DNA of 36,046 nt. Origin: a virus. Taxonomy: Duplodnaviria > Caudoviricetes. A program made the translations under genes and the position numbers. The notes beneath the pieces were generated by a model that was not told the origin of the DNA, searched no databases, and was given only the letters and a program-made list of their open reading frames with translations. Positions 2,122 to 33,066 of the stretch are shown one piece after another. The stretch is from the IMG/VR virus record IMGVR_UViG_3300022697_000115, positions 1 to 36,046 of that record; one strand, written 5' to 3'. Every line of letters starts with the position of its first letter. The stretch's first letter is position 1.

Positions 2122-2325
2122 ATGACTGACCTTCGAAAAGATTATTTCGACGAAAAAGAAGCGGCCGCGTATATGTGTGTTTCTTCTAGCAAATTTCGCC
2201 AGATGGTCAACGAGTATACAATAAGTGTTGGACATTTTGGTAAAAAAAAGATATACCGGAAAACTGATTTGCAACGAGTAATCGAACAGGAAGCATTTAA
2301 TGGCAAGTATTTATCAGCGCAATGA
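2122..2325 (+). CDS. xis: Excisionase-like HTH protein
   Basis: YFDEKEAAAYMCVSSSKF HTH_17-like motif; overlaps the integrase start. Confidence 0.8.
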   Translation: MTDLRKDYFDEKEAAAYMCVSSSKFRQMVNEYTISVGHFGKKKIYRKTDLQRVIEQEAFNGKYLSAQ

Positions 2326-3292
2326 TACTAAATCTTGGTATCTCAAGTGGAACCAGGGCGGTAAATCTTACGCCGTAAACCTGACGAAAAAATATAAAGT
2401 TATTCTCGAAAAAGAAGCGCTGAAGTATAAACAAGCAAAAGAAACTGAGCTTCGTTTCGGTAAGAAAATTCTAAGCGATAACCTGATTTTTTTGAACTAC
2501 GCAGAACAATACAAAGATTGGTTTGTTGTCGAATATCCAACCTCGTACTATCGCATCGAGCAATTAATCAATCAACATCTAGCGCCCTACTTTAATTTTA
2601 TGCCAATTGATTGCATTCGAATTCGCGACGTCGAGCTGTATAAAGTTCAGCGATTAAAGACCGGAATTAAGCGCGCTACCGTAACGAAGGAAATGCGAAC
2701 ACTAAAAGCTATGCTTAATAAAGCTTGTCAGTGGGAATACCTAAATTTTAATCCGATCGCTAACTTAACGTATCCAAAAAACATTGACTCCGCGCCGGCG
2801 AAGTTTTTTACTGTTGATGAATTGGAGCTGATTTACAACAAATCAGACCGGGCGCATTGGTGGCGATTTTTGGCTAATACAGGATTACGTCGCGGGGAAG
2901 CCTTGGCGCTGCAACGCAAATGGATTGGATCAGACGGCCTAAAAGTCGTGTCTACCGAGTCAGCAAGAACCAAGTCTGGTCAGTGGCGCGACATTCCGCT
3001 ATTCGAAGGTGCCAAAGAGGCCCTAGATAATTTCGAAAACAAAGAGAAGCATCTTTATCCGCGCATAAATCCTAGCAGTATGAGTCGAGCGGCTATCAAG
3101 GATTTCCAGCGCGCTGGTGTTGGTGGATCAATGCACGCACTTAGACACTCGTTTTGTTCTCATCTAGTGATGGACGGTACGAGCCTGCGAGTAGTGCAAC
3201 AATTAGCCGGACACTCAAAAATCGAAGTTACCGAAAAATATGCTCATTTGTCGCCGGATTTCATCGCGCAGAATGTAAAACTGAAAATTTAG
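2300..3292 (+). CDS. int: Tyrosine recombinase (phage integrase)
   Basis: TGLRRGE, HALRH, LAGH and terminal YAH catalytic motifs; adjacent to attP. Confidence 0.95.
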   Translation: MASIYQRNDTKSWYLKWNQGGKSYAVNLTKKYKVILEKEALKYKQAKETELRFGKKILSDNLIFLNYAEQYKDWFVVEYPTSYYRIEQLINQHLAPYFNFMPIDCIRIRDVELYKVQRLKTGIKRATVTKEMRTLKAMLNKACQWEYLNFNPIANLTYPKNIDSAPAKFFTVDELELIYNKSDRAHWWRFLANTGLRRGEALALQRKWIGSDGLKVVSTESARTKSGQWRDIPLFEGAKEALDNFENKEKHLYPRINPSSMSRAAIKDFQRAGVGGSMHALRHSFCSHLVMDGTSLRVVQQLAGHSKIEVTEKYAHLSPDFIAQNVKLKI

Positions 3293-3354: not shown

Positions 3355-3386
3355 TAAAAAAGGGCCAGCGAAAAACGCTAACCCTT
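3355..3386 (-). terminator. Rho-independent terminator downstream of the tRNA 3' fragment
   Basis: Minus strand AGGGTTAGCG-TTTTT-CGCTGGCCCT-TTTTT. Confidence 0.7.
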
Positions 3387-3395
3387 TGATTATAT

Positions 3396-3442
3396 TGGCG
3401 TCCCCAAGGGGATTCGAACCCCTGTTACCGCCGTGAAAGGGC
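3396..3442 (-). other. attP core: 3' portion of tRNA-Glu(TTC)
   Basis: Reverse complement GCCCTTTCACGGCGGTAACAGGGGTTCGAATCCCCTTGGGGACGCCA gives anticodon arm, T-arm and CCA; the 5' half is absent. Confidence 0.92.
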
Positions 3443-3685: not shown

Positions 3686-3713
3686 TTGACTTAGGCGATA
3701 TAACGCCTATAAT
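3686..3713 (+). promoter_or_regulatory. Sigma70 promoter with internal palindromic operator
   Basis: TTGACT-16-TATAAT; TAGGCG-atataa-CGCCTA inverted repeat spans the spacer. Confidence 0.8.
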
Positions 3714-3762: not shown

Positions 3763-4236
3763 ATGAAAGCAACTATCACTAAAACAACATCCGGCGGCGC
3801 AAAAATTACAGTAACTCACAGCGCATGCTTTTTAGATAAGTCAGCAGACGGCCAAGTCTACGGTAGTGAGTTTTTTAGCTCGCTAGACTGGATACAGCTA
3901 AGCAAGGACGGAAAAGACCTACTAGGCGGTAAAGAGGTCTCTACGACTCTCCCTGGTTTGCCCAGCGGTGCTGTAGCTGCATTACGCAACGGAAATAAAG
4001 CTCAGCCGATTTCGCAGGAAACCTTCGATTTGATAAATATGGCAAAAGAAGAAGCTAAAGAAGCTGCTGAAAAAGAATTCGGCGATATTCCAAAAAAATT
4101 AGAAATGGAAGAAAATGAAAAAATAGAGCGCATGTCCGCAAATTTCGACGCTGAACAAAAAGAAATCAAATCAAAAGTAGAAAGAGGATTTTGCTTAAAG
4201 TGTAAATCCTACTGTTTTGGTGATTGTAGCGCTTAA
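3763..4236 (+). CDS. Hypothetical protein with C-terminal Cys4 motif (candidate anti-defence)
   Basis: GFCLKCKSYCFGDC; first gene after the strong promoter; GAGGA RBS. Confidence 0.75.
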   Translation: MKATITKTTSGGAKITVTHSACFLDKSADGQVYGSEFFSSLDWIQLSKDGKDLLGGKEVSTTLPGLPSGAVAALRNGNKAQPISQETFDLINMAKEEAKEAAEKEFGDIPKKLEMEENEKIERMSANFDAEQKEIKSKVERGFCLKCKSYCFGDCSA

Positions 4237-4245
4237 TTATTAAGA

Positions 4246-4360
4246 GTCGCCCTCCGGGGTGTTGGATTGAAACTGTCAATTATTGGTTTTTATTAGTCGC
4301 GCCTACGGGCGTGCGGGTTGAAACTTTTAAATGTTTTTTGTAATGCGCCCCTCGCGGGCG
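4246..4360 (+). CRISPR. Degenerate type I-C-like mini-array: two repeat mimics plus a third hairpin, with 22 and 20 nt spacers
   Basis: GTCGCCCTCCGGGGTGTTGGATTGAAAC (4246-4273), GTCGCGCCTACGGGCGTGCGGGTTGAAAC (4296-4324), GCGCCCCTCGCGGGCG (4345-4360); no cas genes in the genome. Confidence 0.7.
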
Positions 4361-4373
4361 AAAGGAAATCTAA

Positions 4374-4631
4374 ATGAATCATCAAATTAAAATTAATCGC
4401 GCAGCAAAATTAGCACCTAAGCTGCCTATGGCGGCACGCGAAATTTGGAAATCTATCCCTGAGTCGCTTACTAAGTCACTGAGCGCAAAAGAATTAGCTC
4501 AAGTCGTCAATGCGCTAGACTCACACTGGCACAGATCAGGGGCACACAAAGAAAAAGAGATCATTAACGAGGGGTGCGTCTGGTCTGACAAACGTAACGC
4601 GTTACTCGATGTAGTGCTCCCAAATGCCTAA
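4374..4631 (+). CDS. Hypothetical protein (candidate Acr)
   Basis: AAGGA RBS, 85 aa, operon context. Confidence 0.7.
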   Translation: MNHQIKINRAAKLAPKLPMAAREIWKSIPESLTKSLSAKELAQVVNALDSHWHRSGAHKEKEIINEGCVWSDKRNALLDVVLPNA

Positions 4632-4923
4632 GCGATTAACTATAACAAAACGTATACGCAAAGTTAAAAGCCAGGAAAGCAAGACGCTTCTTGGCATAGG
4701 CTGGGCGGTTAGTTGGGATCGAGAGCAAACCCAGTTAATCAAGCGACTTGGTGTTGCTGTAAGAGATGACGATTTTAACGAGCTTTGTATTTGTGTTGGA
4801 CAACTTAAAGAGATGTCCGAGAAAAAGTTTTCCGCACTTAAGAACGTCATTAATATAGTTTCTGGCACCGAGGGAGAAATTGACTTAGCAGCCTCCGAAA
4901 AATTTTATCTGGAAAGAAAATAA
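4624..4923 (+). CDS. Hypothetical protein
   Basis: Overlaps the upstream gene end; 99 aa. Confidence 0.65.
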   Translation: MPKRLTITKRIRKVKSQESKTLLGIGWAVSWDREQTQLIKRLGVAVRDDDFNELCICVGQLKEMSEKKFSALKNVINIVSGTEGEIDLAASEKFYLERK

Positions 4924-4959
4924 ATCTAACAAAAAGTAAGATGCAGCGGGGAAAATAAA

Positions 4960-5169
4960 ATGAAAATACGCTTAATTACTCAAGATTACAGCGCGGTTAA
5001 TATTATAAATAGATCAGAGTTAACGGCATATCAAGAGCGCGCCTACGCGTTTGGACTTAAAATGCTAAGAGTTGAAAATCCTTTTTTACGGATTGAGGCG
5101 CGGTCTAGATTGGGTGTAAACAAATTATGCTTTAGCGACCCTTATCATCGTTTAGACCCAGACAGTTAA
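4960..5169 (+). CDS. Hypothetical protein
   Basis: GGGG RBS, 69 aa. Confidence 0.55.
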   Translation: MKIRLITQDYSAVNIINRSELTAYQERAYAFGLKMLRVENPFLRIEARSRLGVNKLCFSDPYHRLDPDS

Positions 5170-5198
5170 TTTAATTATTTTTTTTGAGGATTATAAAA

Positions 5199-5462
5199 AT
5201 GAACTTAAAAAACCTGTCGGAAATTACAAAAGAATTGATTAATGATACAAAACTGGCTTTTGAAGTAAATTTTATGCTGGGAGCGTTTGAAGTGTTAAAC
5301 GAAAAGGAATTGCTTTTCACAGTTTTTTTAAATATCGATAGTGGCTACGATGTCATAGACGTGGGCTCGTTTAAAGAATCTGAAAATTTTATTGATTTAG
5401 AAGAAATCAGCTCAGCTGAAGCATTACAGTCAATATGTGGTTTATTAATAAAGTATAAATAA
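5199..5462 (+). CDS. Small acidic hypothetical protein (candidate Acr)
   Basis: GAGGA RBS before the ATG at 5199; Glu/Asp rich. Confidence 0.65.
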   Translation: MNLKNLSEITKELINDTKLAFEVNFMLGAFEVLNEKELLFTVFLNIDSGYDVIDVGSFKESENFIDLEEISSAEALQSICGLLIKYK

Positions 5463-5488
5463 CCGACAACGCAAACGTGGTAAATTAG

Positions 5489-5911
5489 ATGATAGAAATT
5501 ACAAACGATGGCCCGTCTATTGTAAGCACAAACTATTTTGATACTGAACACGCAGAAAAAGGATTTTTTTATCTGACGTGGAATGCGGGCGTGGGTAGGA
5601 TATTAGTTCCTGACGTGCAATTAAGTGCTTTAAACGAAATGGAAACCGCCGATTTTGTGATTGTCTCGCGTGGTTCTTGGGCCGATCAGAACGACCGGGA
5701 GGCGCTAGAATTGTTATGGGAAGACAGCTCAAAGTCGCCGTATGTCATCACGTTAGTAACAGAACAGTGTGACAGGCTGTTACCTGACACGGATCAAGGT
5801 GGTGGCTTTAAAATCGCCGCGTGGACACGCTCAGGAATAGCTAATGAATGGCCGGGAAAATACCGCGAAGTTGAAAACCTGCCGTTTTTAAAGTCATGGA
5901 AAGAACATTAA
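5489..5911 (+). CDS. Conserved mobile-element protein, resembling plasmid CcgAII-type proteins
   Basis: WNAGxxRxLVPD...ALELLWED...EQCDRLLP...QGGGF...WTR motifs recalled from plasmid proteins; family name uncertain. Confidence 0.55.
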   Translation: MIEITNDGPSIVSTNYFDTEHAEKGFFYLTWNAGVGRILVPDVQLSALNEMETADFVIVSRGSWADQNDREALELLWEDSSKSPYVITLVTEQCDRLLPDTDQGGGFKIAAWTRSGIANEWPGKYREVENLPFLKSWKEH

Positions 5912-5965
5912 ATAGCTCAAAGGCGAGCGGTAACTCAGTTATTAATTGTAAAATACGCGAAGGCA

Positions 5966-6232
5966 ATGAAAAATAATCTAACAACAACTTACATCGAATT
6001 TACGACACTCCAGCCCGGTTACGAAAAAGTTGACTGCGCGAGAGATTTGGCAGAAAGTTTTGATAGAGCGTACGACGTTAACAAGCTTAATAAATGGGCG
6101 CGTGGCGGAGAATCTTTACCTAAAAATGTGCGTGATCACATGCTACGTACTGTACTCGGGTATGCGATCGAGAAAGCTGGCGGGCACCTTGATGACGATA
6201 TCATTGATGATGTTTGCGATAGGATTATATGA
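5966..6232 (+). CDS. HTH-like protein (candidate Aca-type regulator)
   Basis: CARDLAESF...VNKLNKWARGGESLP resembles an XRE/Cro HTH. Confidence 0.55.
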   Translation: MKNNLTTTYIEFTTLQPGYEKVDCARDLAESFDRAYDVNKLNKWARGGESLPKNVRDHMLRTVLGYAIEKAGGHLDDDIIDDVCDRII

Positions 6233-6510
6233 CTGACCTAGAAACCCTATCAGCCCAACATGCCGCCCACAGCAGCGACGAGATTGATGCAATCAAGGAA
6301 GCGGCAATGGATATCATGCAGGTCCGCAAAGGTCAGCGTGCTGGTGTTAAGCGAGTATTAGATGTAGCGTTGTATCTTATTGCTAAGAAGCTTACGCCCG
6401 ATATGATTAATGTTGTGCGGGATGCGCCAAAACCGCCGCCGGAACCTAAAAATAAAGTCTTGGCTAGCCCTTTTCTGAGTGAAGATGACCACAGAAAATA
6501 CAAAACGTAG
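6229..6510 (+). CDS. Hypothetical protein
   Basis: ATGA overlap with the upstream gene. Confidence 0.65.
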   Translation: MTDLETLSAQHAAHSSDEIDAIKEAAMDIMQVRKGQRAGVKRVLDVALYLIAKKLTPDMINVVRDAPKPPPEPKNKVLASPFLSEDDHRKYKT

Positions 6511-30367: not shown

Positions 30368-30913
30368 TTAAGCTGGCGTTGCTTCTGTTAACTTTTCATC
30401 TATCACCCAGTCTTCCGCTAGCATGTCCGCTTGCGATGCCAACCACCCTGGTTGCCACTGTTTTGTTGCCGTGTACATTGCGAAGTACGGTTGGCAATCA
30501 AGAGGCTTATCTTCACCGATCCACTTGGCTGTTCGGTCGTTAACTTTCCTCGCTGTGTCGCTGGTATTAAATGGCGGCAAATACAAAGGCGGCATAAGAA
30601 CAATAAACATGCCCTTACCGTTCCACCCGGTGCGAGCAACTTTATGACCTTTATGCATTGCCTCTAGGGCTAAACCAAAAGTCATTTCATTGGTTTTTCG
30701 ATACGCTTCTTCAAACTGCTCTGCCGGGCTCCAAGAAACGTAATTATCGGTGTACTGGACTACATATCCTTTGTCATCACCGCATTCGTCGGCGGGTAGT
30801 TCCCAGCCTCTAAACTGGTTATATTCAAGACGAGTCATCGGTTTTGCGCCAGATATTTTAGTGCCTATGTATTGGTCCATATTTTCTAATGCCGGATAAT
30901 CATTACCTTTCAT
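30368..30913 (-). CDS. DUF2829 (Tad2-like) anti-defence protein
   Basis: MTFGLALEAMHKGHKVARTGWNGKGMF...GWLASQADMLAEDW. Confidence 0.85.
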   Translation of the reverse strand: MKGNDYPALENMDQYIGTKISGAKPMTRLEYNQFRGWELPADECGDDKGYVVQYTDNYVSWSPAEQFEEAYRKTNEMTFGLALEAMHKGHKVARTGWNGKGMFIVLMPPLYLPPFNTSDTARKVNDRTAKWIGEDKPLDCQPYFAMYTATKQWQPGWLASQADMLAEDWVIDEKLTEATPA

Positions 30914-32064: not shown

Positions 32065-32070
32065 TCGAAA

Positions 32071-32135
32071 ATAGTAAGTGCCACTTACTTTTTTGTCAAG
32101 GTGTAGTTACTAGCTTTTAGGTAAGTTTCCCTTAC
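32071..32135. promoter_or_regulatory. OR-like region: three operators and a PR-like promoter
   Basis: GTAAG-N5-CTTAC at 32074-32088 and 32121-32135, degenerate copy at 32096-32110; minus-strand TTGACA-17-TACTAT. Confidence 0.85.
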
Positions 32136-32878: not shown

Positions 32879-33020
32879 TAACGAAGAAATAACTAACTTC
32901 CTGATCATCTTGGCTATTTCCTAGTCACTACACCTGCGCCCCCAGAAAAACATTAAGTATTGTTTTTAATAAATAATTACAAGTTTATTGTGATTTTTTG
33001 CATTCTATTCATTTTTAATA

Positions 33021-33060
33021 GTAAGTTGTGCTTGACATAAATGTAAGCTGTACTTACTAT
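33021..33060 (+). promoter_or_regulatory. OL/PL-like promoter with two operators
   Basis: TTGACA(33032)-17-TACTAT; GTAAG-N5-CTTGA and GTAAG-N5-CTTAC. Confidence 0.85.
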
Positions 33061-33066
33061 TAAGTC

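Follow-up and report, generated by a model that had tools for sequence, protein, structure and literature searches.

The window, that is, the whole 36,046-nt stretch analysed here, is the viral record IMGVR_UViG_3300022697_000115, which has direct terminal repeats and a completeness rated at 100%. A Pfam search of its 58 ORFs identified P22-type portal, coat, stabilisation and packaging proteins, together with a Cro/CI pair and a tyrosine integrase, and we conclude that the phage is temperate and P22-like. The tRNA-Glu fragment that lies 3′ of the integrase gene (Table 1) differs at 1 base from enterobacterial tRNA-Glu. Because this fragment, the likely attP, is nearly identical to its enterobacterial counterpart, we infer that the phage host is probably a gammaproteobacterium. 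Elsewhere in the genome, a pair of 43-nt inverted repeats (32070–32112 and 33019–33061), with a −35-like box in each arm, surrounds the CI region and likely represents the immunity operators.

Downstream of the attachment site, a predicted promoter precedes eight small ORFs, none of which belongs to a Pfam or NCBIfam family, and a short array of CRISPR repeat-like units lies between the first two. As 8.2 promoter-like sites are expected by chance, the weight of this promoter rests on its position and score rather than on the number of sites. A short palindrome (3692–3710) between its −35 and −10 elements may be an operator; among the genes of the accessory operon, none was identified as a repressor. 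The first gene, which encodes a 157-aa protein, stops 9 nt before the array. This protein has a confidently predicted fold (pLDDT 93) and 23 relatives with 29–49% identity, many with the terminal four-cysteine motif, but no match in Pfam, PHROG or PDB, and a literature search for a 9-residue motif of the relatives found no paper. None of 32 viral loci encoding relatives holds a type I-C mimic within about 1.5 kb, so the gene and the array are not a fixed pair. By position only, we regard the 157-aa protein as a candidate Acr. A second candidate anti-defence gene, encoding a protein with a Tad2-like domain (PF11195, E = 2.5e-25), lies in the early region (30368–30913, minus strand).

Table 1. 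Features of the phage locus and of the host type I-C loci
Feature	Position	Strand	Remarks
Tyrosine integrase	2300..3292	+	Pfam
3′ part of gammaproteobacterial tRNA-Glu, likely attP core	3396..3442	-	3′ of integrase
Sigma-70-like promoter, 11/12 matches, likely start of accessory operon with array	3686..3713	+	best of 10 sites
157-aa protein gene	3763..4236	+	unnamed phage family; C-terminal four-cysteine motif; candidate anti-defence
psiR1, I-C repeat mimic, 28 nt	4246..4273	+	21.3 bits, E 2.2e-4, covariance model
psiS1 (spacer 1), 22 nt, 18% GC	4274..4295	+	starts with reverse complement of sigma-70 −35 hexamer
psiR2, I-C repeat mimic, 29 nt	4296..4324	+	20.0 bits, E 5.5e-4, covariance model
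psiS2 (spacer 2), 20 nt, 10% GC	4325..4344	+	AT-rich
psiR3, I-C repeat core hairpin without handle (terminal degenerate repeat)	4345..4360	+	model positions 5–19, E 0.071
Purine-rich ribosome-binding site and start codon of 85-aa ORF	4361..4376	+	directly 3′ of psiR3
Seven small ORFs (85, 99, 69, 87–92, 140, 88, 93 aa), likely rest of operon	4374..6510	+	no Pfam/NCBIfam
Host I-C CreR-type unit, G198	L374:3038-3137 and 3357-3381 (G198:C14)		cas3–cas5c gap
Host I-C CreR-type unit, G494	L397:1048-1081		cas3–cas5c gap
Host I-C CreR-type unit, G209	L327:1180-1202		cas3–cas5c gap; shortened stem like phage units

Three shortened type I-C repeat units surround two spacers

The array (4246–4360) consists of three type I-C repeat-like units, psiR1 to psiR3, around two spacers, psiS1 and psiS2. 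The original prediction of two units and a third hairpin, with 22 and 20 nt between them, is borne out by the coordinates and by the folds. Folded alone, psiR1 forms a 5-bp stem with a G-U wobble near its base, a UCCG loop and a 12-nt tail (−8.5 kcal/mol); this tail is the canonical 11-nt handle with one extra U in front. For psiR2, the corresponding fold has a 6-bp stem with a G-U wobble, a UACG loop and an 11-nt tail (−11.5 kcal/mol), and its handle carries two substitutions relative to the consensus. The handle-less psiR3 forms a 5-bp stem (−9.1 kcal/mol). These folding energies are within the range of shuffled sequences (z −0.9 to −1.6). The G-U pairs in the psiR1 and psiR2 stems can form only in RNA of the plus strand.

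Both psiR1 and psiR2 have, in shortened form, the GTCGC start, the GC stem and the 11-nt 3′ handle ending in TTGAAAC. They are 3–4 nt shorter than real type I-C repeats (28–29 versus 31–33 nt), having lost the top of the stem and retained the repeat start, the stem base and the 3′ tail. Cas5d is described as reading the stem base and the 3′ tail, and as cutting at the stem base to leave an 11-nt tag (PMC3973291).

We built a covariance model from 12 real type I-C repeats taken from the arrays fetched for this analysis. The three best matches in the phage genome were psiR1, psiR2 and psiR3, and the next of the six matches had an E-value of 0.98; these E-values are rough. A search for the pattern GTCGC..TTGAAA found the psiR1 and psiR2 sites and no others within the 36 kb. 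In 300 simulated Markov genomes, we counted 25 single units, three of them with a hairpin, and no tandem pairs. A looser tandem pattern occurred at 54 viral loci and, since only one of these had a hairpin of −7 or better, chance tandem matches appear to lack the hairpin. Rfam gave no match in the window. No phage relative carrying the array was found in viral contigs by way of the 85-aa ORF or the integrase, blastn of the array against phages and plasmids returned short chance matches only, and a handle-plus-seed scan of viral contigs returned at least 119 loci; among the matches listed, there was one ordinary array spacer and no related mimic. We conclude that the mimicry of type I-C repeats, as originally proposed, is real, and that the tandem arrangement is confirmed.

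Decay of a CRISPR array once captured by the phage, or hairpins unrelated to CRISPR, would account for the differences among the three units and for their scores of 14–21 bits, as against 42–55 bits for intact 32–33-nt repeats. However, this is no random loss: the two ends and the base of the stem persist, bases are missing from each side of the stem, which a UNCG loop closes, and neither spacer is of normal length. Moreover, shortened stems recur in the viral units of L005, L503 and L525 and in the host CreR-type unit of L327. We consider decay or coincidence extremely improbable.

Similar units occur on other viral contigs. An unrelated phage (L005:2501-2576) has the same anatomy as the array described here: a promoter of its own precedes two short-stem type I-C mimics of 26–27 nt, with a spacer of 23 nt and a hairpin resembling a terminator. 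Another contig (L503:376-452, minus strand) holds a 27-nt mimic nearly identical to psiR1, including the UCCG loop, followed within about 15 nt by what we take to be a type I-E repeat. Further solitary or two-unit type I-C repeats were seen in L027/L524, L525, L016, L018, L024, L003 and L510; no cas match was found within 2.5 kb of those in L003, L016, L018, L024 and L027.

The handle-less psiR3 lies directly against the ribosome-binding site that serves the 85-aa ORF, which raises the possibility of an mRNA switch that senses Cas proteins. Cutting of psiR2 would leave its handle, spacer 2 and psiR3 as a new 5′ leader, and Cas5c or Cascade would then set the stability or translation of the downstream ORFs according to the presence of a type I-C system. 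A precedent for an uncut terminal repeat that leaves a long tail is reported for CracrIE2 (bioRxiv 10.1101/2024.10.29.618823), and psiR1 can pair with psiR3 as an alternative fold. In the minimum free energy fold of a 140-nt segment, psiR1 indeed pairs with psiR3 and its own hairpin is absent, but this fold has an ensemble frequency of 0.006 (z −1.7), and a switch would leave the promoter-like seed of spacer 1, described below, unexplained. We therefore judge a switch of this kind very unlikely.

The spacers are short and the phage lacks cas genes

All 160 spacers in eight host arrays are 30–52 nt long, as against 22 and 20 nt in the phage, in line with the earlier view that the phage spacers are shorter than normal. 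Equally, the expectation that this complete genome has no cas genes held: none was detected by Pfam in the 58 ORFs, by a Cas5c family search or by tblastn with 13 Cas proteins. The Cas5c family search gave no match in its 14 control genomes and matched 32 of 400 genomes in a separate draw.

These properties bear on the class to which the array belongs. Its units resemble repeats of a host CRISPR subtype, are carried by a mobile element away from any cas locus and flank two different spacers shorter than those of hosts; these features are among those that define a Cracr array (units of this kind, and at least two different short spacers). A Racr is a solitary repeat unit, and here three units stand in tandem. 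Mini-CRISPR arrays that serve immunity between viruses have spacers of at least 30 nt, a length that neither phage spacer reaches. Such virus-borne mini-arrays are likewise cas-less and use host Cas proteins, but reportedly have normal repeats and full-length spacers; furthermore, no viral target was found for the phage spacers.

Three host type I-C loci carry CreR-type units that match their own cas3–cas5c gaps

In a draw of 400 Gammaproteobacteria, a Cas5c match was present in 32 genomes, and we fetched 30 loci (343,826 bases); a second draw from the class largely overlapped the first and added three loci. A covariance scan of 27 cas5c neighbourhoods gave 13 matches, from which seven repeat-like units were tested for self-targets. 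Three of the seven have a target with a TTC PAM in their own cas3–cas5c gap, with seeds of 14 (G198), 13 (G494) and 16 nt (G209). All three seeds contain a mismatch at position 6, and those of G198 and G209 contain another at position 12. For degenerate units near cas5c at L349:1440-1451 and L348:1090-1114, the search gave no self-target of at least 8 nt.

The G198 locus, in which the gene order is cas3, cas5c, cas8c, illustrates the arrangement. The CreR target lies between cas3 and cas5c and overlaps the −35 box of a predicted promoter of cas5c (11/12 matches). A two-repeat unit is located ~220 nt downstream of this site, and its 34-nt spacer pairs with the site over 14 positions. Judged by sequence, CreR-type autoregulation of type I-C systems exists in Gammaproteobacteria, and the three CreR–target pairs between cas3 and cas5c are new here. 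Separately, a short palindrome recurs upstream of cas3 in L360, L364, L371, L378 and L384, and is possibly the operator of an upstream regulator gene.

Spacer 1 resembles a host CreR guide

Searching the spacers with a TTC PAM against host cas promoters, as the original prediction had suggested, gave a match for spacer 1 and none beyond chance for spacer 2. Nine contiguous PAM-proximal bases of spacer 1 match, behind TTC, the −35 box of the predicted cas5c promoter in G198 (L374), which is the best PAM-seed match of this spacer in the 30 loci. The match ends at position 9 and covers 14 of 22 positions overall, whereas host CreRs reach 13–16. Compared with the G198 CreR spacer itself, spacer 1 has the same first five bases and agrees at eight of the first nine, the difference being at position 6; against the target of that CreR, it agrees at nine of nine. 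The suggestion that the TTGACA in the reverse complement of spacer 1 pointed to a promoter is supported, in that spacer 1 starts with the reverse complement of the −35 hexamer and that a Cascade promoter predicted in a real type I-C locus has this box followed by the PAM and is the apparent target of a host CreR.

A 9-nt seed behind TTC was found anywhere in the 30 loci for 854 of 5000 shuffled spacers and for 1452 of 7784 AT-rich 22-mers from the phage (17–19%), and in the non-coding DNA of these loci for 170 of 5000 shuffles and 244 of 7784 mock spacers. Only two of the 7784 AT-rich 22-mers, one of them spacer 1 itself, have a 9-nt seed at the L374 site, although this count was made after the site had been seen. 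Six of the 7784 start with the reversed −35 hexamer. We regard the strength of the match between spacer 1 and L374 as modest, and conclude that spacer 1 looks like a host CreR guide. With −35 boxes found universally, promoter guides of unrelated origin can come to share this seed, and the match therefore argues for targeting of a promoter and not for G198 as the host.

No better match to spacer 1 was present in 17 additional loci, of which some overlap the initial set or have weak Cas5 matches. A search for the repeat followed by TGTCA found 2 of 79 genomes, neither of which has a repeat hairpin there. Among 401 genomes it found five, namely G198, two with ordinary array spacers and two with chance sites. 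For spacer 2, nothing beyond chance was found in the cas loci tested; the best seed, 8 nt, was reached by 667 of 5000 shuffles.

Alternatively, the guides could send host Cascade to other DNA, such as a competing mobile element, the promoter of a CreT-like toxin or of another defence system, the interior of a cas gene or the promoters of the phage itself. A metagenome scan for the predicted 17-nt target returned 114 loci, and in no case did a cas gene begin next to the match; in 34 of them the flanks were only short. In tblastn searches, two of these loci (L243 and L258, which are one sequence) contained cas sequence; there, TTC and a 17-nt match to spacer 1, with a mismatch only at position 12, lie inside the coding region of cas8c. 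This match would fit targeting of a cas gene interior. However, normal interference would need longer spacers, given that host spacers have at least 30 nt, and no site with a TTC PAM was among the top matches in the phage. We consider targets of this kind highly improbable. Two phage sites that lie within an ORF, a 9-nt seed next to a GTC PAM near position 1068 and a 12-nt stretch at 1073, were treated as chance.

The repeat evidence (the hairpins and the covariance matches) would be equally consistent with a multiplexed decoy resembling a Racr, in which repeats cut by Cas5c would sequester Cas5c and Cas7 in short complexes that have no target, and the spacer sequence would be irrelevant. The array lies behind an unnamed gene, at a distance of 9 nt, and belongs to an operon with a strong predicted promoter, much as RacrIC1 lies 11 nt behind acrIC5 (PMC10651486); moreover, spacer 2 has no target that we found and spacer 1 has no long match. 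On the other hand, Racrs are defined as solitary repeats in the same source (PMC10651486), whereas here three units stand in register, and spacer 1, whose first bases are exactly the reversed −35 hexamer, has its seed in common with a real host CreR. We regard a pure decoy as possible but rather unlikely. As competition for Cas proteins is also part of the Cracr mechanism, the two readings differ only in whether the guide matters. The original prediction had offered aberrant Cascade or guided repression; guided repression by a Cracr has more support than aberrant Cascade formed by a Racr, and both stay putative.

The attachment site does not pin the host

The exact tRNA-Glu core is present in several orders, and 9 of 33 Cas5-positive genomes hold it; being so common, the core does not pin the host. 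Ten genomes matched the att pattern, mostly gammaproteobacterial MAGs of several orders, and none of the ten contained Cas5c. In G494, a relative of G198, the tRNA-Glu fragment differs from the phage att core at 1 base. None of the four genomes tested for the clade of G198 matched the att pattern, and in the same four no CRISPR-spacer-like match to the phage was seen. These checks do not support the clade of G198 as the likely host.

A model for the action of the array

We propose that the array is a two-spacer Cracr array, which would redirect host Cascade onto its own promoter and compete with crRNAs; we estimate the probability of this reading at about 0.6. What the sequences establish is how the repeats are built, that the spacers are short and cas genes absent, that host type I-C loci have CreR-type units aimed at TTC-PAM sites, and that spacer 1 matches one such site over 9 nt. 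Against the reading weigh the end of this match at position 9, the ease with which 9-nt seeds arise in the 30 loci, the checks on the clade of G198, the metagenome scan with no match beside a cas gene start, the chance-level matches of spacer 2, and the irregular psiR1 tail, psiR2 handle and psiR1–psiR3 fold. By analogy with the tested type V-A, I-E and I-F cases (bioRxiv 10.1101/2024.10.29.618823), we expect Cas5c to cut the transcript, Cascade to load the products and to bind the promoter with no cleavage by Cas3, and the RNAs to compete with crRNAs. Transcription from the promoter at 3686, within the operon next to attP, would occur in the lysogen or early in infection. Host Cas5c would cut the stem bases of psiR1 and psiR2, leaving handles of 11–12 nt, and RNA 1, ~51 nt long, would comprise a handle, spacer 1 and the psiR2 stem. 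Cascade with a guide of 20–22 nt would bind sites with a TTC PAM, the guide being too short to license Cas3. Once on the −35 box of the host Cascade promoter, the complex would lower transcription of cas5c-cas8c-cas7, and the short phage RNAs would also compete with immune crRNAs. Spacer 2 may address a second host variant, or a site outside our sample. The promoter of the true host is predicted to extend the spacer 1 match past position 9.

A more elaborate version of this model, which we consider quite unlikely, is a double device. RNA 1 would repress the Cascade promoter, the psiR2 cut would make RNA 2 a Cascade-bound leader of the seven-gene message, and the 157-aa four-cysteine protein would be a new type I-C Acr that leaves Cascade with short guides unaffected, in the manner of AcrIF24 in type I-F. 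If this were true, the host CRISPR machinery would both silence itself and set the output of a phage anti-defence operon.

Relation to known systems

The two-spacer Cracr reading has clear precedents. Nine two-spacer type I-C Cracr arrays have been predicted from RefSeq and IMG/VR (bioRxiv 10.1101/2024.10.29.618823), so the tandem short-spacer form is not the novelty that had been supposed. Nor is embedding in an mRNA, as RacrIC1 is already part of a bicistronic RNA, 11 nt behind an acr gene (PMC10651486). In the main text of the former source, type I-C Cracrs are mentioned three times, as predictions only, and the experiments concern types V-A, I-E and I-F; the Cracr spacers tested for types I-E and I-F measure 21–24 nt, and the authors' filter demands at least nine PAM-proximal bases matching a host CreR/CreA spacer (bioRxiv 10.1101/2024.10.29.618823). 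The literature searched, at the level of titles and the openings of abstracts, named no experimentally tested type I-C Cracr. The phage array may already be in Supplementary Table S2 of bioRxiv 10.1101/2024.10.29.618823.

Like Cracrs, the phage array is a cas-less viral array with degenerate repeats, two short spacers and a degenerate third repeat, of a subtype (I-C) among those predicted. The PAM-proximal part of spacer 1 also resembles that of a host CreR, at eight of the first nine bases, and matches a predicted cas promoter, which would fit a Cracr. It differs in that its stems are cut to 5–6 bp with UNCG loops and in that it lies inside a protein-coding operon; the named type I-C Cracr example targets Neisseria (bioRxiv 10.1101/2024.10.29.618823). 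The lengths of the host CreR spacer (34 nt in G198) and the phage spacer (22 nt) differ in the same direction as in the type I-F report of that source. RacrIC1 is alike in being a type I-C mimic directly behind a small phage gene, on one transcript, that competes for Cas proteins (Camara-Wilpert et al. 2023, PMC10651486). However, Racrs are described there as solitary, near-intact and untargeted repeats, whereas the phage array has three units and a promoter-like seed, and the gene upstream of RacrIC1 is an acr, whereas the 157-aa protein is no recognised Acr. The CreR/CreA mini-arrays (bioRxiv 10.1101/2023.03.10.532045, 10.1101/2023.03.03.530964) share degenerate repeats and partial pairing to a PAM-flanked cas promoter site, but are host-encoded, lie in the cas locus and act in cis, with a longer spacer in G198.

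The principle of counter-defence is thus already published, and the array is a new example of it. Together with the three host type I-C CreR–target pairs, the phage locus forms a concrete test set in which PAM, seed and cut sites are predicted. The array also suggests that a repeat of 27–29 nt with a 5–6-bp stem may suffice for Cas5c, which is relevant to compact type I-C guides, and repeat searches that demand 90% identity would miss such shortened units.
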